Shown here: piece by piece, positions 3,949 to 54,345 of the stretch
How positions within the stretch are numbered: the first letter of the stretch is position 1
Layout of the letters: each line of letters begins with the position of its first letter
IMG/VR virus record: IMGVR_UViG_3300005077_000004
Span: 1-64,000 of that record
Origin: a virus
Length of the DNA: 64,000 nucleotides
Strand: one strand, 5' to 3'
Notes under the pieces: generated by a model
Databases searched by the model: none
What the model was told of the DNA's origin: nothing
The model's input: the letters and a program-made list of their open reading frames with translations, nothing else
Translations under genes and position numbers: made by a program

Positions 3949-4219
3949 AGGTGAACTTAAAGTATCTCCAGCATTGGATACGTTTTTAGAAAATATGAAG
4001 GTCATGAAAGAATTCGCGGACGTCGAAGTCAATCGTGATGTACTGGTTGGTTGGGGTATATACATTCCAGAGAAAGAAGCTGTCATTATTCTCGGAGGAC
4101 CAGAGGATGAAGCAAAGGCTCGGAAGCTGGTCAAGATCCGAAATATGAAAGGACGCAAGGATCAATTGATCCCACTCTTCAAACCCCACGCAGGCATTCG
4201 TATACAGAGAGAGATCTAA
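3941..4219 (+). CDS. hypothetical protein (92 aa)
   Basis: Coupled to its neighbours on both sides, with a TAATG junction at 4217-4221. Confidence 0.5.
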   Translation: MSKGELKVSPALDTFLENMKVMKEFADVEVNRDVLVGWGIYIPEKEAVIILGGPEDEAKARKLVKIRNMKGRKDQLIPLFKPHAGIRIQREI

Positions 4220-6231
4220 TGTCATTCAAAAAACGAGGTTTCATCCGTAAACAATTCGTTGAAGAACAAGAGTCTTCTGGTCCTGATTATAATGAAATGA
4301 AAGCTCACTTCCTCAAACGAACCAACAGACATATTCAGATGGTTGGAGAATATCTCGACAAGGCTATCGAAGCATATCCGGAATATGAAGAAGACCTTTC
4401 TCTTCGAAAAGAAAAGCACGATGAAACCAAATTTGCTCCACCGGAATTCAAACCATATATTCATTTGACTTGGGAATACAAATGCAAAGATGATGGTGTC
4501 GATTACAAGATGGATGAAGACATGAAGCATATGTGTCACGATGCAACCTTCCATCACATCAAGAATAATAAACACCATCCGGAGTATTGGGATAACAGTC
4601 TGGATACGAATCCGGTTTCGTTTGAGAACAGGGATAAACCTTCCGGGATCCTGGTCAAAGCGGAGAGAATGGATAAGGTTAGTATTCTGGAGATGGTGTG
4701 TGATTGGTGCGCTATGGGACAAGAGCGAGGAACCTGTCCGATTGAATGGGCAAAAAACAATTTGGGAAATAGATGGAGATTTGATCAAGACCAGGAGAAG
4801 TTCATCTATGCTGCTCTGAATCGATTGCTCGGAAAGGATATTGAAGAATCTATCGAGTGGATCATCGACGAGACGTTTCCCGAAAGATTCCTTATGATAT
4901 GCGAAGAGTCGTTAGAAGATGGATTGGTCAAGCTTCGCCGCATGTTCCATACAGCTAACCCGAACGAGAAAAGAATCATCCAAAAATCAATTGATGCTCT
5001 TGAGAAAAAGATATCTCAACAAGAAAACCCCAAAGCAAACCAATCTGAAAAAATTATAGATGGGGTTCATTATATGCTCAATTATGGAGTCGATCAAAAG
5101 TATCAACCAAAGCGTGTACTCTCTGTGACCGATTCTATAACACCGGATGATTGGTATGAAGTATCAAAAGGTATAAATACATTTTTATATGATTCTAAAA
5201 AGAAAACGCTATATGCCGATAAAGCTTCGGTCAGTCACAGAAAGCTAATACTTCAATTGATTGAGATCGGAGTCTTCCCTCAGAAATGGTCTAAGAATCT
5301 AGAGCATGGTGTCGAGGGGTTTGATTTAGCCCATCCAGAAATGATCAGTGGAAGATCAGGTGTTTTTGAATACGAGAACAATCGAGGAAAGACTCTTTAC
5401 GGTATAGCACTATGGAATAAAGATGTTCCTCTCTCGACACTCCAAGAGCTTTTAGTGAAGTTGAAAGAGAAAACAAAGTTCAGGTTCGATTATGTATTCT
5501 TACCAGACAGAACCTTCTCAGCAATACATGAGGAAATGATGGATGAATCTATACATGACAAATACAAGTTCAAAGCTTTCTTCACCGCTGGAGGTCCAGG
5601 AAATGGAAAGTCTTTCATCGCGAAGCTTCTATTCAACCCTGATAAGATCACCATCATATCTTCCGATACGATTCTAGAATACATTCTGAAGAAGACGGGA
5701 TTATCAAAGAAGCTTGATCCACAACAAAAAGAAACCTTCGAGAAGCAGATGGCACTTCGAAATGTTGCGAAATCGAAATCAGTTCTTCAGATTGAAAATC
5801 TAATCAATGGAATGCTCCCGCTCGTCATTGATGGAACCGGAAAGTCTTATGACCGAATTAAAACGCAAAAGGACTGGTTGGAGAAGCACGGATACGATAC
5901 TCACATGGTTCTGGTCAACACCAACAAAGAGACTGCGGTTCGTCGTAATGAGAAGAGGGAGAGGAGTATCGCTAAAGATGCCGTGTTGAAAATGTGGTCC
6001 CAGGTGCAAGATAACATAGGAAAATTCCAGGAGTTGTTTGGTGATAAGTTTTTGATCATCGACAACAGCACGCAATTAGATAAGCAACAGATGCAGGAGA
6101 AGCAGAATAATCTTCTGAGGAAAGTACGACACATGCTTTCTGCTCCTATCGAGAATCATCTAGGAAAGGAAGCTATTCAGAGCTTGGAGAAGAGTGGTGG
6201 AAATACTCTCAAAGATCTTAAGGAGAACTAA
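4219..6231 (+). CDS. three-module protein: N-terminal His-rich HD-like domain (DUF5662-like), unknown middle region, C-terminal T4 Pnk-like polynucleotide 5'-kinase P-loop domain
   Basis: N-terminus: HDETKF...HDATFHHIKNNKHHPEYW. C-terminus: Walker A GGPGNGKS, SSDT, VIDGTGKS, and lid RRNEKRERSIAKDAVLKMW, which closely parallels T4 Pnk [20 protein letters not shown] (recalled from memory). Confidence 0.6.
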   Translation: MSFKKRGFIRKQFVEEQESSGPDYNEMKAHFLKRTNRHIQMVGEYLDKAIEAYPEYEEDLSLRKEKHDETKFAPPEFKPYIHLTWEYKCKDDGVDYKMDEDMKHMCHDATFHHIKNNKHHPEYWDNSLDTNPVSFENRDKPSGILVKAERMDKVSILEMVCDWCAMGQERGTCPIEWAKNNLGNRWRFDQDQEKFIYAALNRLLGKDIEESIEWIIDETFPERFLMICEESLEDGLVKLRRMFHTANPNEKRIIQKSIDALEKKISQQENPKANQSEKIIDGVHYMLNYGVDQKYQPKRVLSVTDSITPDDWYEVSKGINTFLYDSKKKTLYADKASVSHRKLILQLIEIGVFPQKWSKNLEHGVEGFDLAHPEMISGRSGVFEYENNRGKTLYGIALWNKDVPLSTLQELLVKLKEKTKFRFDYVFLPDRTFSAIHEEMMDESIHDKYKFKAFFTAGGPGNGKSFIAKLLFNPDKITIISSDTILEYILKKTGLSKKLDPQQKETFEKQMALRNVAKSKSVLQIENLINGMLPLVIDGTGKSYDRIKTQKDWLEKHGYDTHMVLVNTNKETAVRRNEKRERSIAKDAVLKMWSQVQDNIGKFQELFGDKFLIIDNSTQLDKQQMQEKQNNLLRKVRHMLSAPIENHLGKEAIQSLEKSGGNTLKDLKEN

Positions 6232-7034
6232 TGGGAAGGAAGAGAGGACGTCCAAGAATCAAACGGGCGGTCATTGTTGGTATTGATCGTTATCAACCAG
6301 AAGAAATAAACCTTAACGGTTGTACTGCTGATGCCCTCGACTTCTACCGGAACATAACCCGATGGTACGGATTCGCTCCCAGGTATTGCACACTTCTTCT
6401 CAACGAAGATGCAACCAAATCAAACATCATGCAAGCTCTCAGCGAAATGGTTTCTAAGACTCAAGCGAAACAGGAAGCCGTTTATTACCAGAGTGGACAT
6501 GGATCACAAATTGAGGATGGAAGTGGAGACGAGGCTGATCATTTGGATGAAGTTGTTATTCCGTATGATTTCAATTTCTCGAATGTCATCAGCGACGATG
6601 AATTGTATTTGTGCTTCAGTGACTTAGCTGAGGGTGGATTCTTGAGTATGATAATGGATACTTGCTTCTCGGGTGGTACGGCAAAAGGTATGGGAACAAA
6701 AACCATACAAACGATGAAAACCGATCCCCTACTTCCTCTGGTTCATTACGGTGTAAAGGATTCGAACCCTTCGACACAAAGACACGTACTCCTATCGGGG
6801 TGTCGAGAAGGTGAATACAGTGAGGAGTTCTATTCGGATAAGTATGGATATCGAGGGGTGTTGACTTTCTTTCTTGGTAAGATCTTGTATAACTATCGAA
6901 AGAGAAATCTGACTTGGCAGCAAACCTTGTCTATCATTTCTAATGGCATATCATCCCACTCTTTTTCCCAACACCCAACCCTATCAGGTAGACAAGATTT
7001 ACTTGTTCGGGGTGTCGTTGGTGGACGAAGGTAA
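6231..7034 (+). CDS. caspase-fold protease (Peptidase C14, orthocaspase/metacaspase-like) with an N-terminal AT-hook-like motif
   Basis: RAVIVGIDRY; catalytic His context YYQSGHGSQ; GDEADHLDEVVIPYD; catalytic Cys context MDTCFSGG. The N-terminus carries KRGRPR. TAATG coupling to the upstream gene. Confidence 0.75.
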   Translation: MGRKRGRPRIKRAVIVGIDRYQPEEINLNGCTADALDFYRNITRWYGFAPRYCTLLLNEDATKSNIMQALSEMVSKTQAKQEAVYYQSGHGSQIEDGSGDEADHLDEVVIPYDFNFSNVISDDELYLCFSDLAEGGFLSMIMDTCFSGGTAKGMGTKTIQTMKTDPLLPLVHYGVKDSNPSTQRHVLLSGCREGEYSEEFYSDKYGYRGVLTFFLGKILYNYRKRNLTWQQTLSIISNGISSHSFSQHPTLSGRQDLLVRGVVGGRR

Positions 7035-9394: not shown

Positions 9395-10366
9395 TTAATT
9401 ACAACAAATCATTGGTATACCGAAAATATCATTAATATCATCAACACCCGAATAAGATACAGATGATTTCAAACCTTCTTCTATCTGATCAATGAAAAAC
9501 TTCATATCACCCTTATATGAAATCATATGACATACACCTTCAACGTGATGGTTATTCTTTTTGGTTTTCTCACTCGCATTACCATAATACTCTTTATATG
9601 CTTTTCCATCAACTATTCTTATATCTCCGGCAGATTGTTCAAAACCAGAAAACATATTACCCAACATAACATATTTGGTATTCTCAGATGTGTTTAAAGC
9701 AATTGCTATATGACCAATCTCTTTGATAGAACCGTCTGCTATCATAGGTAAATTAGAAACTTTTCCGCAATCTTGAAGAGTTGTTACCATTCTACGGTTA
9801 AATCCCGTAACATTTTTCGTGCTGCAAACCGAACCGCAAGAGATTCCAACCTTTAACACATCAATACAAGACGACTCTTGAAGATACTCAACAGCTTCGG
9901 GTGTACAAATATTTCCAACAATAATCGTAGCATCGGGAAAAATAGACTTCGATTCCTCAGCCATATTCCTCGCAAATTCAGAGTATGCATTCGCGACATC
10001 AATTGTGATATACGATATCTTCAACCCACATCGTCGCATTTCTAACAAAAGATTTTTGTCGTGACTTTTCACACCAACCGAAATAGATGCAAACAGAGAA
10101 GATCCCATAAATTCTAAGAATTCAAAATATTCTCTCTGATCTAATGAAAATCTATGCATAATATAAAACATTCCGAGATCCGCAAGATAACGACATGTGT
10201 TATAATCAACAACAGATTGCATATTTGCTGGAATCACAGGATTTCTAAACTCTCTCGGACCTATCTTTACAGAAATCTTACACGCGGATCTACTTTCGAC
10301 AATACATCTTTGGGGAACCAAATATACATCTTCATAATTAAATTCTCTACGAATTATATCTTCCAC
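9395..10366 (-). CDS. guaC: GMP reductase (IMPDH/GMPR family, B. subtilis GuaC-like short form)
   Basis: FNYEDVYLVPQRCIVESRS...PVIPANMQSVVD, ITIDVANAYSE, catalytic-loop GISCGSVCSTKNVTGF, IADGSI. About 320 aa with no CBS insert. Confidence 0.8.
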   Translation of the reverse strand: MEDIIRREFNYEDVYLVPQRCIVESRSACKISVKIGPREFRNPVIPANMQSVVDYNTCRYLADLGMFYIMHRFSLDQREYFEFLEFMGSSLFASISVGVKSHDKNLLLEMRRCGLKISYITIDVANAYSEFARNMAEESKSIFPDATIIVGNICTPEAVEYLQESSCIDVLKVGISCGSVCSTKNVTGFNRRMVTTLQDCGKVSNLPMIADGSIKEIGHIAIALNTSENTKYVMLGNMFSGFEQSAGDIRIVDGKAYKEYYGNASEKTKKNNHHVEGVCHMISYKGDMKFFIDQIEEGLKSSVSYSGVDDINDIFGIPMICCN

Positions 10367-13816: not shown

Positions 13817-14473
13817 CTAAAGTTCAATCACAATTGGATTGTTCAACGGTTCATACTCTTCTGTACAAATAGAAGCATTGACGTACTGAACATTATTTCC
13901 ATTTTGAGATTCTGACTGACTCACCCCATAAGAATAATGAATATGACCGAAAATATGAACCTTCAATTGATGAAGATTCGAAATTCTTTCTCGGAGATCT
14001 TCACATCCAATTTTCTCCACTTCCTCAGTTCGATCCAGAATTCCCATCGGTGGACAATGGGTTATGAGAACATCTGTATCATTCGGGATCAAAGACCAAA
14101 CCCTTTGAAGTTCAGTTCCACGAGGAAGATTGAATGCCCAACTACAGAAAAATGGTTGCCATGGGGAACCATAAAACTTAATACCGTCGATCACAGATAC
14201 TTCATCTTGAAGATAAACTATATCAGTCATCAACTCCTCTCGACAATAAAAAGAATCTTGGTTTTGTAGACACCGATCATGGTTGCCTGCAACAAAAATC
14301 TTATGCTTGTGGGGAAGATTCTTAAACCATGCATAGAACGCTTCCAACTCTAAGAGATGTCCATACCCACAAGCATCTCCTGCGAAGATCAGGACGTCAC
14401 CCGAAGGGATATCAATCTTAGAGTGATTACCGTGAGTATCAGATAGACAGACGATTCGCATTCCATCCTCCAC
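13817..14473 (-). CDS. calcineurin-like metallophosphoesterase (MPPED/239FB-like)
   Basis: LSDTHGNH, FAGDA, AGNHD, ITHCPP, FGHIH motifs in order. Confidence 0.75.
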   Translation of the reverse strand: MEDGMRIVCLSDTHGNHSKIDIPSGDVLIFAGDACGYGHLLELEAFYAWFKNLPHKHKIFVAGNHDRCLQNQDSFYCREELMTDIVYLQDEVSVIDGIKFYGSPWQPFFCSWAFNLPRGTELQRVWSLIPNDTDVLITHCPPMGILDRTEEVEKIGCEDLRERISNLHQLKVHIFGHIHYSYGVSQSESQNGNNVQYVNASICTEEYEPLNNPIVIEL

Positions 14474-14477
14474 AAAA

Positions 14478-14630
14478 TTAATACTTAATAACCCAATAGA
14501 TCACATAGAACCAGGAACAGATGGCATGGAGAATCGCCCAACCAACACTATGATTGACCGACCAGCTACAAATAACAGCAATCACAGATCCAAGACCAAC
14601 TCCACTACTCGTTTGCGAAGAATTACTCAT
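14478..14630 (-). CDS. small membrane protein (50 aa, hand-translated, below the ORF-track cutoff)
   Basis: ATG preceded by AAGGGGA. Sequence MSNSSQTSSGVGLGSVIAVICSWSVNHSVGWAILHAICSWFYVIYWVIKY. Fills an otherwise empty gap. Confidence 0.45.
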   Translation of the reverse strand: MSNSSQTSSGVGLGSVIAVICSWSVNHSVGWAILHAICSWFYVIYWVIKY

Positions 14631-14651
14631 TTCTAGTTCCCCTTATTTTTA

Positions 14652-14834
14652 TTAAGAAGGTCTCTGACAAACACCATTCTCGATCAGAGCGGAAGCGTTT
14701 CGACCATACCATCCCTGAAGCTTCCAACACATTCCGGTATCGATCAGATACTGCCACGCGGCAATGATTTCCTCTTCCGTATGCTCCTCACCGTCGAACC
14801 CTTCCACAATCGCGCACGCATCATACAGTGTCAT
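14652..14834 (-). CDS. hypothetical protein (60 aa)
   Basis: ORF overlapping the upstream stop by 4 nt. Confidence 0.45.
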   Translation of the reverse strand: MTLYDACAIVEGFDGEEHTEEEIIAAWQYLIDTGMCWKLQGWYGRNASALIENGVCQRPS

Positions 14835-15067
14835 ACGATCTCCTTTGCCTTTTCAATGTGACTGCAACTCTTGCGATATTGAAACCCAGGACATTCACAC
14901 TCCCAACTCCCATCCGTATACTGAAATACTTTGTACGTTTTATTTGGATCTTTTCCGCTTGGGATGTTGAAAACTCTAGTCGATAGACGTTTGGGTTCGG
15001 ACATTCGTAAACTCCTTATCGACTGGAAGATCCCCTCTCTGTATGAGAGTCTTTCTTCGATCTTCAA
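14831..15067 (-). CDS. SWIM zinc-finger protein
   Basis: CECPGFQYRKSCSHI matches CxCx(n)CxH. Confidence 0.6.
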   Translation of the reverse strand: MKIEERLSYREGIFQSIRSLRMSEPKRLSTRVFNIPSGKDPNKTYKVFQYTDGSWECECPGFQYRKSCSHIEKAKEIV

Positions 15068-49192: not shown

Positions 49193-50326
49193 TTATTCGT
49201 AATCTCGTACAATCAAACCAACCGGAAACCGAGGAATCCCATCATCCGTCAATTCGAAATATCTAACTGTCATCATTTTTCCGATGTACTGGTTCCCATT
49301 CTCAAACCAGTCTTTTCGTTCCCCTTCGGTTCCCCTCGGTCGAACACTGAATTCTTTTCCACTTTTAGTCTTACATTTCCAAATCACAGTACCCTTAGCT
49401 CTACCCTCACCTTCGGTAAATCCGACAATTTCAAACTCGTCATCTTTGAAGTTCTTATACTTCTGGAGATCTTTTGATCTCTTATTGACAGAATAAACCC
49501 CATCCATATTTCGGAGTATCAGCCCTTCATAACCTTCTGAAACAAAGAAGTCGTGATACTTCTTAATATCGTCCTCATTTTTAATCAGAACGTTTTCGGT
49601 AAGTTTGATCGACTTACAATTGACACTTTCAAGAAGACCACGAAGATGTTGATAACGGGTTATAAAAGGAACCTTTGGATTGTCTGGAAAAATAGAATCA
49701 TACAAACGATAGCATATCTTTCGCATATCGTTTGTATCTTCTTCTGCGAGAGTTTCTTTCTTGACCAACCCAACTGTTCTTTGAAATGTGAGGTCGTCTG
49801 AATAAAGTTCACCATCAAAGATTATTTGACCGCTACAAAGCTTTTTGAGTTGGAGGATAGGTTCGAACAAATGTTCCAGATGCGGAAAAATCTTTCCTTT
49901 CCTCGACATAAGAACGACATTGTTATTTCCTAAAACGAACGCAAGGCAACGAACCCCGTCAAACTTTCTTTGCCCTATACAAGGAAACTTCATATCCTTT
50001 CCACGCTTATCGTAAGAATGGGCAAGCATAGGAAGATAAACAACAGTATCTACGTTGTCCAGAGACTCAACATATCCCTTATCTTTTTGCTTCTTCCACT
50101 TCGACTCTGCTTCGCTCCTAGCTTGATCGAACGGGGTGGTTTCGTTTTCTTTCCCGATATTTTTACCCTTCGTTATCTCTTTGACGTCTACTTGCTTTTT
50201 TCCGTCCTGGTATCCATGAACGATAGTAATTATCCCCTTATCAGCACAATCACCATCAACCTTAATCTCCCATTCGGAGATTTTTCCGGTAGACGACTTC
50301 TTATAGAGAATCGGAAAAGATATCAT
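49193..50326 (-). CDS. ATP-dependent DNA ligase
   Basis: Motif I GQRKFDGVRC (KxDG), III IFDGELY, IV YEGLILR, V LQKYKNFKDDEFEIVG, OB-domain tail GIPRFPV. Start MISFPILYKK preceded by AGGGAGAAACA. Confidence 0.85.
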   Translation of the reverse strand: MISFPILYKKSSTGKISEWEIKVDGDCADKGIITIVHGYQDGKKQVDVKEITKGKNIGKENETTPFDQARSEAESKWKKQKDKGYVESLDNVDTVVYLPMLAHSYDKRGKDMKFPCIGQRKFDGVRCLAFVLGNNNVVLMSRKGKIFPHLEHLFEPILQLKKLCSGQIIFDGELYSDDLTFQRTVGLVKKETLAEEDTNDMRKICYRLYDSIFPDNPKVPFITRYQHLRGLLESVNCKSIKLTENVLIKNEDDIKKYHDFFVSEGYEGLILRNMDGVYSVNKRSKDLQKYKNFKDDEFEIVGFTEGEGRAKGTVIWKCKTKSGKEFSVRPRGTEGERKDWFENGNQYIGKMMTVRYFELTDDGIPRFPVGLIVRDYE

Positions 50327-50336
50327 TGTTTCTCCC

Positions 50337-50897
50337 TTAGAGTAGAAGACCAATAGGTTGATCTCGATCAACCTCTTCAACAACCGAAATCAACTCTTTC
50401 AAATTATCCAAAAGATTTTCAAGATCACTAGAATCGCAAACCTGAACCGCTACCTCGTAAACCTCAAGAAGTCGATCATATTCCTCTTCTGAAGCAACGT
50501 AGTTTTTATGATTGTCTGACGAATTCTCGTCGTCCTCTTCGTCTTCTTCGTCGTCCTCTTCGTCTTTGTTTTTTCGGTTAGCGTGGAGAAGTTCATTGAT
50601 CTCGTCAATATAAGCATTAACTTCTCCTGGATTAAGATTACAAGGGTGATATATAGTAACCTTTTTTCCATTATATAACTTTCCTTGGGTCGCTGAATAA
50701 TCCGCATTAACAAACAACCCGTTCGGATTCATTCCATCTTCTTGAATAGCTTCTCGGACCTCATCGACCGAGACCTTTGAATTCGGAAGATACGTCAGGA
50801 TCTTCTTCCAAATTTCATAGGTTGTGAACAATCTCTTCATAACCATCTTCTGTGAAATTTCTTTCTTAACGATATCTTGTAGAATTTCTTTTTCCAT
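50337..50897 (-). CDS. hypothetical protein with an acidic tract (186 aa)
   Basis: ORF between the PARP and ligase genes. Contains DEEDDEEDEEDDE. Confidence 0.5.
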   Translation of the reverse strand: MEKEILQDIVKKEISQKMVMKRLFTTYEIWKKILTYLPNSKVSVDEVREAIQEDGMNPNGLFVNADYSATQGKLYNGKKVTIYHPCNLNPGEVNAYIDEINELLHANRKNKDEEDDEEDEEDDENSSDNHKNYVASEEEYDRLLEVYEVAVQVCDSSDLENLLDNLKELISVVEEVDRDQPIGLLL

Positions 50898-50940
50898 GAT
50901 TTTCTCCTTTTGTTAAATTGTACCAGATTTTGATTCAGAG

Positions 50941-52251
50941 TCAATTAAATTCTATTAGGTATTTTGGATTGCATTGATGAATTTTGTAGACAATCATTTC
51001 GTTGTTTAGTACACCAGAAACCCCGGCTTTAGCGAAGCAGGAATCATATCCATCGGGAAGTTTTCTAAACCCACGATTAGTCGGAGTGTATTCTTTTCCC
51101 ATCGCGACATCAAACAGAAACATGAAGCAATGACTGCTTCTGGATCCTGACCAATATCCATAAGAATAATTAAGACTCTTCGTAGATTGGTCGCTGAAAT
51201 AAGCACCATCACCAAACATTCTTCCGGTACAATAGGATGCCGAAGATGGGGGAATGTACAACCCCTTCGCTAGAATCGAAAGAATGTTTCCTATCCTGGT
51301 TCCATGCCAAAGTTCTCGCACGTTCCCAATCTTAAGACCTTGATGTTTGTATTCCTCATTCATCTTCTTATGGTGAACAGTGTACACTTTTTTCATTGAT
51401 AGGTTACGACACGAATGTCTATCGTTCTTCGTATTCAAAAAGAACTTTAGAAGTCGATCAAACTCTTTCTTGTCTTCGAGAAGACCGACCCGAACACCAA
51501 AATCCAACTCCTCTTTCTTCTCGTCTTTGGAATCTTTTGGAGCATTCAAAACGTCAAGACTCGCTTGAAGTGAATCAAGAATCGAAGAAATCTGATCAAA
51601 CTTATTCAGATCATGGCAGAGAGTTTTCAAGGTTGGTCTTTGACGTCCAATATCTTGAGGGATCAACATCATGAATTCTTCTGCCAATCGGTCTCCGCTT
51701 TTGTTGTTGAATTGATTCTTTTCAACAAAAGGTTTGATATTGCTCAAAACAAGTCTTGCTTGATCGATACTGTTTTGACCGACGACACCTAGAGGGGTCG
51801 AAAACAATCCTGTCGTTTCATCATACTTAAGTGTGGTATTACTTGTAATGTTGTGAATGTTCTCTCGATCAAGAAGGGAGATTAGGTTTTCTACTTCCTT
51901 GTTTCCATCTCCTATCTTTTTCCATACGTCTTTCCCAAGTGACTTCTTCGAAGGCATAGAGACATGATCCACTGTTCCAACGATATCAACTTCCTTGTAG
52001 CAAGAATCCCTCTTACCACCTTTTGCTTTCCCACGTTCTTTTTTCTTAATCAACTTCTCAGCTTCTTTCAACGCTGCATCGGAAGATCCAAAATTCTTAG
52101 TAGTTGATGCTCCGGAATCTCCAACCCGACCATATTCAGTTTCAAGCGTACCATCATCGTACACCTTGATACTCCAAAACTTATTATGACCGGCTGTTCC
52201 GAATTCAGAGTCAGTGCAAATGAATTTCTTGCTCAGAACAAGATTAGACAT
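50941..52251 (-). CDS. poly/mono(ADP-ribose) polymerase, eukaryote-type WGR + helical regulatory + ART catalytic domains
   Basis: WGR: HNKFWSIKVYDDGTLETEYGRVG. Helical domain: FMMLIPQDIGRQRPTLKTL (compare PARP1 FYTLIPHDFGMKKPPLL). ART: LWHGTR (H), GAYFSDQSTKSLNY (Y), NNEMIVYKIHQCNPKYLIEF (E; compare PARP1 [20 protein letters not shown]). Confidence 0.8.
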   Translation of the reverse strand: MSNLVLSKKFICTDSEFGTAGHNKFWSIKVYDDGTLETEYGRVGDSGASTTKNFGSSDAALKEAEKLIKKKERGKAKGGKRDSCYKEVDIVGTVDHVSMPSKKSLGKDVWKKIGDGNKEVENLISLLDRENIHNITSNTTLKYDETTGLFSTPLGVVGQNSIDQARLVLSNIKPFVEKNQFNNKSGDRLAEEFMMLIPQDIGRQRPTLKTLCHDLNKFDQISSILDSLQASLDVLNAPKDSKDEKKEELDFGVRVGLLEDKKEFDRLLKFFLNTKNDRHSCRNLSMKKVYTVHHKKMNEEYKHQGLKIGNVRELWHGTRIGNILSILAKGLYIPPSSASYCTGRMFGDGAYFSDQSTKSLNYSYGYWSGSRSSHCFMFLFDVAMGKEYTPTNRGFRKLPDGYDSCFAKAGVSGVLNNEMIVYKIHQCNPKYLIEFN

Positions 52252-52255
52252 AAGT

Positions 52256-52609
52256 TCATCCTTGGAATGGAGGAGGCATAGCACCTGGAACAATAATCTT
52301 GCTTCGTTCTCTCTCTTGATGTTCTTGTGCTTGCTTCTTCATCTCTTCAATCATTTCTTTGGCAATCTGAGGAACCTTCTCCTGCTTTGTAAGTTCGAAC
52401 TTTTCGAAAGCTTCCTCTATTGTTTCAGCCTCAATGTCAAATCCAACAGGTCTTTCTATCTCTCCCATAGGTGTATGAAACCCTACCACAGCATGACCTT
52501 GAAAATCTATCTTGACACCCTCCGACATTGCTTTCGGAGTCGGAACATAAGCTGTGATTTTTGCTCCACTTTCATCATCGATGTAGTTATAAACGATCCG
52601 TATAGACAT
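52256..52609 (-). CDS. hypothetical protein (117 aa)
   Basis: Start MSIRIVYNY forms a TAATG junction with the upstream SEC-C gene. Confidence 0.5.
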   Translation of the reverse strand: MSIRIVYNYIDDESGAKITAYVPTPKAMSEGVKIDFQGHAVVGFHTPMGEIERPVGFDIEAETIEEAFEKFELTKQEKVPQIAKEMIEEMKKQAQEHQERERSKIIVPGAMPPPFQG

Positions 52610-52980
52610 TACAATCCCCTTCCACAACAACGCTTAAACTTTTTCACCTGTCCCTTCTTCGGACCATCCTCATACTTCGATCCACACGGACACGGTTTAT
52701 TCGGTTTCGGCATCTTGAGAGGTCCAACCGCATGAGGTTTTACACCCCACTCTTTGTATTTCGCCTCACATCTCTTGATATAATCATCTTGTTCTTCGTT
52801 GGATGCTTGTTTTGGAAGATCGTAAACCTTGAATTGACCCCTTCTCGGTTTCTTCCCCATCTTCAAAAACGCTTGATACTCTTGATGGGTTCGAAGACTC
52901 TTAAACGGATCCTTCGTTGGTTCTTTGACTTTCTCAACAACCTCGGGTGGTTGGAATTGATTTTCCTGTTCTTCTTGCAT
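52609..52980 (-). CDS. SEC-C motif protein
   Basis: PCPCGSKYEDGPKKGQVKKFKRCCG, a split CPCGS...KCCG metal-binding motif. Confidence 0.6.
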   Translation of the reverse strand: MQEEQENQFQPPEVVEKVKEPTKDPFKSLRTHQEYQAFLKMGKKPRRGQFKVYDLPKQASNEEQDDYIKRCEAKYKEWGVKPHAVGPLKMPKPNKPCPCGSKYEDGPKKGQVKKFKRCCGRGL

Positions 52981-52992
52981 TTTTACGCTCTC

Positions 52993-54024
52993 CTAAAATG
53001 TTCCATCTATAATATTCAGGAACCGATCTCGAATAAATGTGGATACTACCATATTGATTCTTTTGTTTATCGTCTTGTTCTGACTGACGTCGAACTTTGA
53101 GAATTTTTCTTCGTGGTCTTTCCGTAAATCGCTAATGACGTCCTGTGAAAACATTCCGAGAAGCTTGCCAAACATTTTATCGGTCACTTGACCAACCTTG
53201 GACAAAACGCTTCGAAGTCTATTCTCATTGATATATGAATCAACCAGATCGAGAATCTCTTGCTCTTCGGGTGATAGAGCAGAAGCAACCTTTGTTTGCT
53301 TCAACGATGTTTTATCCTTAGAAAGATTCTCGGAGAACTTTTCATTCTTGTTTTTAAGAATGACTCGCGACCCGCACGGAAAAATTCTATCGATGACAGG
53401 TTTGATCACCACACCTTCACATATATTATTTTCAATTGGAGGAAGACCTAACACGTTTGGAATCGTGGTCGGAAATTCATTCGGATAAGCGATTGAGTCT
53501 TGGAAGAATCCTCGATAGAGAGCTTTCGCATATAAGAAACCAAGTTCTTTCATGCAACCTTCGAAGATATCATAATTGACAAATCGACCTTGAACCTTCA
53601 GATCGAACGCATAAAAATCATTCTTCGGAGAGTAATAAACACCTTTCTGAACGGTCGTAGACTTGGTATCTCTCTCTATTGAAGGGTGGGGATAGTTGCC
53701 ACCAAAAATTTCACCGAAAAGAGCTATTTCATAACTCTCTATTTTTAGATTGAAGACTTCTCCAACCGCTATATAGAGTTGCTTCAGACGATCATAATAA
53801 AGATCGGCAACTCTTTCCCAACCATAGAAGTTATCGTCTTCTCTCAAGAAGGTAGTTCGTTTGGCATATCGAATACCTTCTCGATTCATCCAGAAGGAAA
53901 AATTAGATCCGTGGACCTTTTCGGTCACGACCCATTCCCCATACGACAAACCGTATTGGATTATATCATTGATAGTCTTTATTCGATAAGAATTTTCTAT
54001 CGAAGGATATTCTTTGAATTCCAT
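52993..54024 (-). CDS. RNA ligase, Rnl2 (T4 RnlB)-like
   Basis: Motif I VTEKVHGSNF, III LFGEIFGG, IV CEGVVIKP, V VILKNKNEKF, plus a C-terminal helical domain. About 340 aa. Confidence 0.75.
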   Translation of the reverse strand: MEFKEYPSIENSYRIKTINDIIQYGLSYGEWVVTEKVHGSNFSFWMNREGIRYAKRTTFLREDDNFYGWERVADLYYDRLKQLYIAVGEVFNLKIESYEIALFGEIFGGNYPHPSIERDTKSTTVQKGVYYSPKNDFYAFDLKVQGRFVNYDIFEGCMKELGFLYAKALYRGFFQDSIAYPNEFPTTIPNVLGLPPIENNICEGVVIKPVIDRIFPCGSRVILKNKNEKFSENLSKDKTSLKQTKVASALSPEEQEILDLVDSYINENRLRSVLSKVGQVTDKMFGKLLGMFSQDVISDLRKDHEEKFSKFDVSQNKTINKRINMVVSTFIRDRFLNIIDGTF

Positions 54025-54275
54025 TCTTCTTTCCTTTTGGATAAATCAGAACGACAGAGATCTTCCATAGCTATCCAGTATTGAGAACACACCACAGTCT
54101 TCGGAAAGTCTTCTCGTAGAAGACGGTCAAACCACCCCTCCCGATAACCAGAACATTGTCCGGTTGTATAACCGTAGCGGAACACCAAACCAAACAACAC
54201 GAGAAGCACCATCACAAATAATGGTGTCAATGTTAACCAGAATCGATAACAACGAAATTGCATATAAACCCTCAA
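53997..54275 (-). CDS. possible membrane protein (92 aa)
   Basis: Hydrophobic helix LTLTPLFVMVLLVLFGLVF. Confidence 0.35.
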   Translation of the reverse strand: MRVYMQFRCYRFWLTLTPLFVMVLLVLFGLVFRYGYTTGQCSGYREGWFDRLLREDFPKTVVCSQYWIAMEDLCRSDLSKRKEEWNSKNILR

Positions 54276-54345
54276 TATATGTGAAGGATTATAGCATACT
54301 ACAGAAAAATTGTCAAGTTATTTTTTGTGATTCTGGAATGGTTTT

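Follow-up and report, generated by a model that had tools for sequence, protein, structure and literature searches.

The window analysed in this study, a stretch of 64,000 nucleotides (positions 1 to 64,000 of the IMG/VR virus record IMGVR_UViG_3300005077_000004), belongs to a 191,782-bp contig of an uncultured phage and contains, at positions 49193-54024, a row of genes in which a poly(ADP-ribose) polymerase (PARP) lies between an RNA ligase and a DNA ligase. Six open reading frames (ORFs), all on the minus strand and tightly packed, were identified in this interval, encoding an Rnl2-type RNA ligase, a SEC-C-like protein, a 117-aa ORFan, the PARP, a 186-aa protein (orf186), and an ATP-dependent DNA ligase. 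A preliminary description, made from the sequence without database searches, had reported six co-directional and partly coupled genes here, and both points hold, as all six ORFs are present on the minus strand and the gaps between the row genes are -1, 4, 10, 12, and 43 nt. This packing is operon-like. Additionally, we found genes for a T4-type portal protein (Portal_T4, 1.1e-74), which matches those of T4-like phages at 26% identity, and for a gp53-like baseplate protein in the window; on these genes, the source is an uncultured T4-like phage of about 192 kb. A megablast search of the block against 50,697 phage records gave no DNA-level match, and therefore no cultured close relative was available from which annotation could be borrowed.

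The PARP gene (50941-52251, minus strand) encodes a PARP1/2-like ADP-ribosyl transferase of 436 aa, consisting of a WGR domain, a helical regulatory domain, and an ADP-ribosyl transferase (ART) domain. Its ORF extends over 50941-52293, and the likeliest start is the ATG at 52251, which gives 436 aa, the same as the database protein P0001. All three domains were matched by their families (WGR, PF05406, 8.7e-13; PARP_reg, PF02877, 33.5 bits against a cut-off of 26.8; catalytic domain, PF00644, 2.5e-27). The H-Y-E triad (H316-Y351-E418, numbered from the ATG at 52251) was invariant across 22 aligned homologues, as were the G and R of the WGR motif, and the WGR and autoinhibitory helical domains were retained in every one of them. 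The first position of the motif is Y in the window PARP (a YGR variant), a residue that is common at this position among bacterial PARPs (PMC5966428). The closest solved sequences were the PARP1 catalytic domain (1.6e-24) and the WGR-to-catalytic fragments of PARP1 and PARP2, and the helical regulatory domain aligned with the PARP1 and PARP2 helical domain of solved structures. The identification of this gene as a WGR-PARP in the preliminary description was therefore correct, with the full architecture of a DNA-break-activated PARP and an intact H-Y-E triad.

The same WGR/helical/ART architecture and H-Y-E triad are found in HaPARP of Herpetosiphon aurantiacus, CdPARP of Clostridioides difficile CD160, and human PARP2 and PARP3, and bacterial WGR-PARPs of this architecture are activated by DNA in vitro (PMC5966428, PMC4245714). 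By homology to the bacterial and human PARPs, the phage enzyme is very likely a nucleic-acid-activated ADP-ribosyl transferase, the activity of which would depend on DNA breaks. Phage PARPs are already known from annotation and surveys (PMC4245714, PMC7824862, PMC9503650). We found more than 1,800 PARP homologues in metagenomes, as well as full-length homologues with 31-35% identity in the cultured phages Xanthomonas XacN1 (BBA65562), Xoo-sp13, Klebsiella FBKp34, Stenotrophomonas CM1/RAS14, Cellulophaga phi4:1, and Aeromonas Aeh1. The same PARP clade also occurs in bacteria, on chromosomes and megaplasmids of Armatimonadota, Blastocatellia, Pseudomonas, Paracoccus, and mycobacteria (L066:8001-9818, L067, L078, L086, L077, and others). 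One viral locus carries a second PARP-like fragment of 63 residues, 62% identical to the window PARP, 1.1 kb downstream of its full PARP (L024:12404-12589). In eukaryotes, PARPs have a central part in DNA repair and serve as drug targets; the present locus contributes a clean phage example of full length.

The RNA ligase (52993-54024, minus strand; 343 aa) contained a nucleotidyltransferase domain and an Rnl2 C-terminal domain, with matches in Pfam and PHROGs to RNA_ligase (PF09414, 1.3e-24), T4_Rnl2_C (PF18043, 3.1e-20), and phrog_548 (RNA ligase, 4e-71). Motif I is K36-V-H-G-S-N, including the lysine of KxHGxN, and the further motifs EKVHGSN, FGEIFGG, CEGVVIKP, and ILKNKNEKF were identified; both Rnl2 domains and motif I are shared with T4 RNA ligase 2 (gp24.1). 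The DNA ligase (49193-50326, minus strand; 377 aa) is ATP-dependent and consists of an N-terminal domain of about 95 aa, an adenylation domain with the motif I RKFDG, and an OB domain. Its ORF spans 49193-50383, and its start is the ATG at 50326, with GGGAGA ahead of it. The ligase matched DNA_ligase_A_M (PF01068, 2.7e-21), DNA_ligase_OB_2 (PF14743, 2.5e-12), and phrog_114 (4.9e-82), and its best solved relatives were the ligases of African swine fever virus (ASFV; 6imj, 8e-30), T4, and PBCV-1, the 6imj match taking in part of the N-terminal domain. The adenylation and OB domains are common to the ATP ligases of ASFV, T4, and Chlorella virus, but the window ligase is small and lacks the helical DNA-binding domain seen in the T4 and cellular types. 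Both ligase assignments of the preliminary description are confirmed by these features, namely the two Rnl2 domains and motif I lysine of the one enzyme and the KxDG adenylation domain and OB domain of the other. The first 95 or so residues of the DNA ligase (50042-50326, minus strand) align in register, weakly, with the WGR domain (W, G-K-K-Q, and a terminal KGY). A reading of this region as a WGR domain, which would have strengthened a nick-sensor theme shared with the PARP, is kept only as a lead, as hhalign gave a probability of 27% (P 6.7e-4) and Pfam gave nothing.

A sigma-70-type promoter (TTGACA-17 nt-TATAAT) with an extended -10 TG (TGnTATAAT) was found at 54288-54316 on the minus strand as the sole 12/12 match in an 8-kb scan. 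The site falls within the 321 nt that follow the upstream FkbM methyltransferase gene, which form the only intergenic gap of notable size, and is likely to be the early promoter of the gene row. The first gene after it is a small ORF (53997-54263, minus strand) for an 88-aa Cys-rich membrane protein, which overlaps the Rnl2 start by 28 nt and has a homologue of 89 aa at the same position in a related locus (L003, 5678-5947), with the shared motifs RCYRFW...GWFDR...C.QYW. Both the 12/12 promoter and this ORF had previously been overlooked. A weaker promoter-like site (50917-50944, minus strand; TTGACT-16 nt-TACAAT with a TG directly before the -10, a 10/12 match) extends over the PARP stop codon, precedes orf186 and the ligase, and is followed by an AAGGAG ribosome-binding site, so orf186 and the ligase may also be transcribed apart from the PARP. 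The gene row forms a genuine, and probably early, transcription unit. No tRNA genes, Rfam families, or meaningful repeats were found in the region.

To place the row in a wider context, the surroundings of PARP homologues were compared in 45 viral loci, 6 loci from long metagenomic contigs, 2 cultured phages, and 37 bacterial loci, and 51 loci were collapsed to 34 lineages at 60% PARP identity. Directly downstream of the window PARP, 43 nt after its stop, orf186 (50337-50897, minus strand) encodes a PARP-associated protein of 186 aa for which no Pfam or PHROG family was found. Its residues 1-114 matched the hidden Markov model of a partner family (E 1.4e-7 and 8.8e-8), the N-terminal 92 or so aa being the winged-helix part of that family, and the profile also matched the corresponding genes of L010 and L004. 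Typical partners have about 200-240 aa and an N-terminal domain of about 90 aa with the signature FTA[YF]D...H...Y.RT...VYHP. They usually begin 0-800 nt after the PARP stop, and the gap is -13 to +32 nt in L028, L027, L006, L020, L016, and L010. By profile, the partner accompanied the PARP in 18 of 34 viral lineages, usually directly downstream. In bacteria, it was present at 13 of the 37 PARP loci, one of them on a 5.7-Mb Blastocatellia contig, and it lay almost always immediately downstream of the PARP. From these sequence comparisons, the PARP and the gene directly after it appear to be the only evolutionarily conserved functional pairing.

An exhaustive profile search brought the partner family to at least 452 representatives at 50% clustering; with the same profile, a word-indexed search had yielded only 4 proteins. 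The family had no Pfam, PHROG, or PADLOC model. In the reverse search from the partner, a PARP was found upstream for P0121 and P0172; no PARP lay near P0264, where NADAR and NMNAT-like genes adjoin instead. A bacterial PARP is often followed by a short partner that consists of the winged helix only. At L096:2349-4287, NADAR and an NMNAT-like nucleotidyltransferase were seen beside a partner gene, with no PARP in view.

An AlphaFold (AF2) model of a typical member, built from a 64-sequence alignment, reached a pLDDT of 85.4 and contained a three-helix N-terminal winged helix, a disordered linker, and two beta-beta-alpha-beta-beta repeats; a model from a 4-sequence alignment was unusable (pLDDT 38.7). 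Foldseek matched the former to the swapped-hairpin barrel PhS018 and to PadR/RTP/Fur winged helices, the E values being weak (0.03-1) although the probabilities were high, and the L008 member gave a weak MazE/AbrB match in Pfam. The partner family is predicted from this model to comprise DNA-binding proteins. Only the winged helix is retained in the window copy and in its two relatives, where the usual AbrB-like C-terminal half has given way to an acidic D/E run and helices; the family's invariant His is also lost from the window orf186. The comparison therefore points to a conserved, unannotated, and predicted DNA-binding partner of PARP, providing a concrete two-protein system for experimenters. 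In a distant PARP clade, to which Xanthomonas phage XacN1 belongs, the gene after the PARP is not the winged-helix partner but a member of a different small-protein family with a C-terminal GxGTTVxYNKNWA motif (L001:10386-10772, L036:11241-11726, L039:11277-12227, L054:11337-12119, and L046/L047:11357-11785), sometimes fused to an acyl-carrier-like PP-binding domain.

The ligases behaved differently from the partner in this comparison. A conserved PARP-ligase linkage in other phages, which the preliminary description had named as the check on its interpretation, mostly fails to appear, being gone at 55% PARP identity and reaching few lineages in the sampled flanks. The complete row recurred only in L003/L010 (PARP 67% identical) and L004/L005 (58%), and the flanks of these loci were collinear too, including a 383-aa neighbour, a GT8-like gene, and a 494-aa radical SAM gene. 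Because such unrelated flanking glycan genes are also collinear, the conservation of the row reflects overall synteny. The glycan-gene setting noted previously is itself real, with sulfotransferases, GT2/GT92/GT7C glycosyltransferases, FkbM methyltransferases, and radical SAM enzymes flanking the block. In L006, the PARP of which is 55% identical to that of the window, no ligase was present within 7 kb, and RecJ and thymidylate synthase genes lay nearby. The XacN1 and FBKp34 PARPs, homologous over their full length, had no ligase within 8 kb on either side, and none of the 37 bacterial PARP loci had a relative of the window Rnl2 or DNA ligase within 8 kb by BLAST with those two proteins only.

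Among the 34 lineages, the sampled flanks contained an ATP DNA ligase in 5, with three different N-terminal architectures, an RNA ligase in 8, and any ligase in 11; two NAD-dependent ligases were present by Pfam count. When neighbour families were counted by lineage, the winged-helix partner was found in 14, DNA ligase and Rnl1 in 5 each, and topoisomerase II, deoxynucleoside monophosphate (dNMP) kinase, thymidylate synthase, and the Rnl2 family in 4 each. The frequency of the single-copy DNA ligase is at chance level, since a 20-kb interval covers about 5-13% of a 150-400-kb genome. The PARP tends to lie among genes of DNA and nucleotide metabolism, among which the ligases are not clearly special. 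This result also calls for caution in assigning function from adjacency, as the position of a PARP between two ligases is mostly a lineage-specific gene order.

Taken together, we favour, with a probability of roughly 60%, the interpretation that ordinary phage ligases have been placed beside a PARP-plus-partner cassette, the cassette being the conserved unit and the three enzymes most likely acting independently. The Rnl2-type ligase would seal nicks in duplex or structured RNA, and the ATP DNA ligase would serve as the ordinary ligase of the phage for joining Okazaki fragments and nicks. The WGR domain of the PARP would bind a DNA break with a 5' phosphate, this binding would lift the autoinhibition by the helical domain, and the H-Y-E ART domain would move ADP-ribose from NAD+, probably as chains, to further acceptors as well as to the PARP itself. 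The partner would bind DNA, either positioning the PARP or being its acceptor, a role to which its acidic or low-complexity linker would be suited. The ligases would adjoin the PARP through the tendency of PARP genes to occupy the region of large phage genomes devoted to nucleic-acid metabolism, and not as components of one machine.

Several observations weigh against this interpretation. Pooled into one annotated class, polynucleotide ligases were outnumbered as neighbours only by the partner. Another T4-like clade has an Rnl1-type RNA ligase, from a different family, 0.3-1 kb upstream of the PARP (L033:8041-9288, L034:8207-9433, L035:7521-8942, L038:3192-4337, and L048:8046-9239), which could represent a real, looser functional link beyond the resolution of the sample. 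This juxtaposition is independent of the Rnl2-PARP arrangement in the window, and two independent juxtapositions of an RNA ligase with a PARP are suggestive, not significant on this sample. The window orf186 is an atypical member of its family, having neither the AbrB half nor the invariant His, and may share a promoter with the ligase; in L096, the partner gene stands away from any visible PARP. The 60% identity cut-off for lineages is arbitrary, the flanks were sampled over 7-10 kb, and many contigs are incomplete. Finally, no experimental work on any phage PARP was found in the literature searched. The loci of the Rnl1-PARP clade also hold genes for topoisomerase II, a dNMP kinase, a non-specific endonuclease, and a NUDIX protein.

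The preliminary description had proposed a break-sensing and sealing module, in which nicked DNA or RNA would be sensed by the PARP and both ligases would be recruited or activated by it, plausibly countering anticodon nucleases and restriction or nicking systems. Much of what it started from stands, namely the gene identities, the PARP architecture, and the row, which is conserved in three genomes and is preceded by a consensus promoter, with a weaker promoter-like site inside it before orf186 and the ligase. The ligases found near the PARP in 11 of 34 lineages belong to three DNA-ligase subtypes and two RNA-ligase families, with Rnl1 directly upstream of the PARP in the five loci given above, and a similar role has been speculated on for a PARP and an NAD-dependent ligase in gut jumbo phages (PMC11662467). 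However, the linkage is lost at 55% PARP identity and is missing from XacN1, FBKp34, and the 37 bacterial loci over the distances searched, its conservation in close relatives extends to unrelated glycan genes and so amounts to general collinearity, and the ligase frequency is about that expected by chance for 20 kb and similar to those of topoisomerase, thymidylate synthase, and dNMP kinase. With little comparative support, we consider such a module unlikely.

The readers and erasers of poly(ADP-ribose) (PAR) bear directly on this point. Neither ligase carried a BRCT, PBZ, macro, or WWE domain, only nucleotidyltransferase, OB, and Rnl2_C domains being present, and no PAR-reader domain was found elsewhere in the block or window. 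Likewise, no Macro, PARG, ARH, or NUDIX protein was detected among the scanned ORFs of at least 110 aa in the window, which covers 64 kb of the 191,782-bp contig. The eukaryotic PARP1-XRCC1-DNA ligase III axis resembles the locus in that the window likewise co-encodes a WGR-PARP of the break-sensor type and a nick-sealing ligase, but that axis needs PAR-binding BRCT/PBZ readers and PARG, none of which was detected here, and the gene linkage is not conserved. The genomes encoding HaPARP and CdPARP also carry PARG (DUF2263), whereas no eraser was seen in the phage window. Conversely, no mention of a winged-helix partner was found for HaPARP or CdPARP in the literature, whereas the phage PARP has one directly downstream.

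It had also been suggested that the window encodes every activity needed for healing and sealing RNA and DNA ends. Both ligases and one metallophosphoesterase (13817-14473) were recovered, but the candidates for the second metallophosphoesterase and the CX5R phosphatase had no family match. The protein described as Pnk-like (4219-6231) is a 670-aa DUF5662 protein with a P-loop kinase domain (AAA_33/Zeta_toxin) located 45 kb from the block, and no phosphatase domain was detected in it. The invoked kinase and phosphoesterases, only partly confirmed, lie 30-45 kb from the block, which also argues against a single module. In T4, anti-PrrC repair uses Rnl1 and the bifunctional kinase-phosphatase Pnk, whereas the window has an Rnl2-type ligase and a distant kinase in which no phosphatase domain was detected. 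On the plus strand at 4219-7034, the DUF5662/P-loop kinase gene, which gave a weak PADLOC match to VakA, is followed by a gene for a caspase-like Peptidase_C14 protein, and this arrangement is more suggestive of a conflict pair than of a polynucleotide kinase.

A broader proposal, which we regard as quite unlikely and slightly less probable than a sealing module, would make the PARP and its winged-helix/AbrB-like partner a widespread, undescribed two-gene system of large phages and bacteria that senses DNA ends and ADP-ribosylates. Such a system would have settled repeatedly beside RNA and DNA ligases in T4-like lineages as a break-response locus, and it would serve in conflicts of phages with their hosts or with one another, as a prokaryotic-virus counterpart to, and perhaps an ancestor of, the PARP-ligase repair axis of eukaryotes. 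A looser PARP-ligase association, if confirmed on complete genomes, would bear on the origin of eukaryotic break signalling.

Besides break signalling on phage DNA, host takeover is another possible role for the enzyme, in which a PARP targeted by its partner would ADP-ribosylate nucleoid, transcription, or replication proteins of the host early in infection. This role has been proposed for jumbo-phage PARPs by comparative surveys (PMC7824862, PMC9503650), and the sigma-70-type consensus promoter upstream, which suggests early expression, and the transcription-factor-like folds in the partner are consistent with it. However, the WGR and autoinhibitory domains kept in 22 of 22 homologues argue for an activity triggered by nucleic acids rather than a constitutive one, and the cassette also occurs in bacterial chromosomes and megaplasmids, where takeover would be senseless; we judge this role less likely again. 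Least likely of the readings considered is a mobile PARP and partner pair for superinfection exclusion or abortive infection, sensing foreign DNA ends or breaks and consuming NAD+ or marking DNA or proteins, with the partner as a DNA-binding regulator or antitoxin-like restraint: its patchy spread over unrelated phages and bacteria (including the 5.7-Mb chromosome contig and megaplasmids), its compact two-gene form with an AbrB/MazE-type fold typical of antitoxins, and the ARH, NUDIX, NADAR, and NMNAT-like genes near some loci would fit, but neither the PARP nor the partner was matched by a PADLOC model, and the window partner has no AbrB half.

The PARP and its partner resemble type II toxin-antitoxin and ADP-ribosyl transferase pairs (DarT-DarG; AbrB/MazE-fold antitoxins) in joining an ART-superfamily enzyme to a small protein of AbrB/MazE-like DNA-binding fold. 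They differ in that a macro or NADAR hydrolase domain is missing from the partner, and the PARP, judging from its domains, would be a regulated and autoinhibited enzyme rather than a simple toxin. In PADLOC-DB 2.0, neither the PARP and its partner nor the ligases and small ORFs of the row had a match.

Two small genes occupy the interval between the Rnl2 and PARP genes. The first (52609-52980, minus strand) encodes a basic protein of 123 aa with a C-terminal SEC-C-like zinc knuckle (CPCGS...11-aa insert...KRCCG), the Pfam match to SEC-C (PF02810) being below the threshold (E 0.13, 12.6 bits against a cut-off of 20.4). Its four Cys residues (CxC...CC) are all conserved in the homologues from L010 and L004, where the motif takes its canonical form CPCxSGxKxKxCC, and the window copy carries an 11-residue insertion inside the motif. 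A word-indexed search of 5.8e9 proteins with this protein returned only itself. The second is the 117-aa ORFan (52256-52609, minus strand), which had been called at 52256-52630; its start is most likely the ATG at 52609, which overlaps the stop of the SEC-C-like gene as TAATG. No Pfam, PHROG, or PADLOC family was found for the ORFan, which is kept only in L010 and L004. By sequence, both small proteins are restricted to the clade of the window, L010, and L004. The idea that these small ORFs (52256-52980) are those of the Rnl1-PARP clade was rejected, as hhalign showed no relation between them.

Some additional genes were observed around PARPs in other loci. In L007, an ADP-ribosylglycohydrolase and a Fic protein accompany the PARP (14061-15002 and 9600-10196). 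Five TnpB-like ORFs (OrfB_IS605 with a Cas12f-like TNB domain) were present among the ORFs within 10 kb of viral PARPs. Eukaryotic vault particles contain a PARP (PARP4), and on a 207-kb phage contig of the same lineage as L011, a gene located 1.4 kb downstream of the PARP (L009:9692-12157) encodes a protein of 821 aa that contains the shoulder domain of the major vault protein (PF11978) and weakly matches Vault_3.

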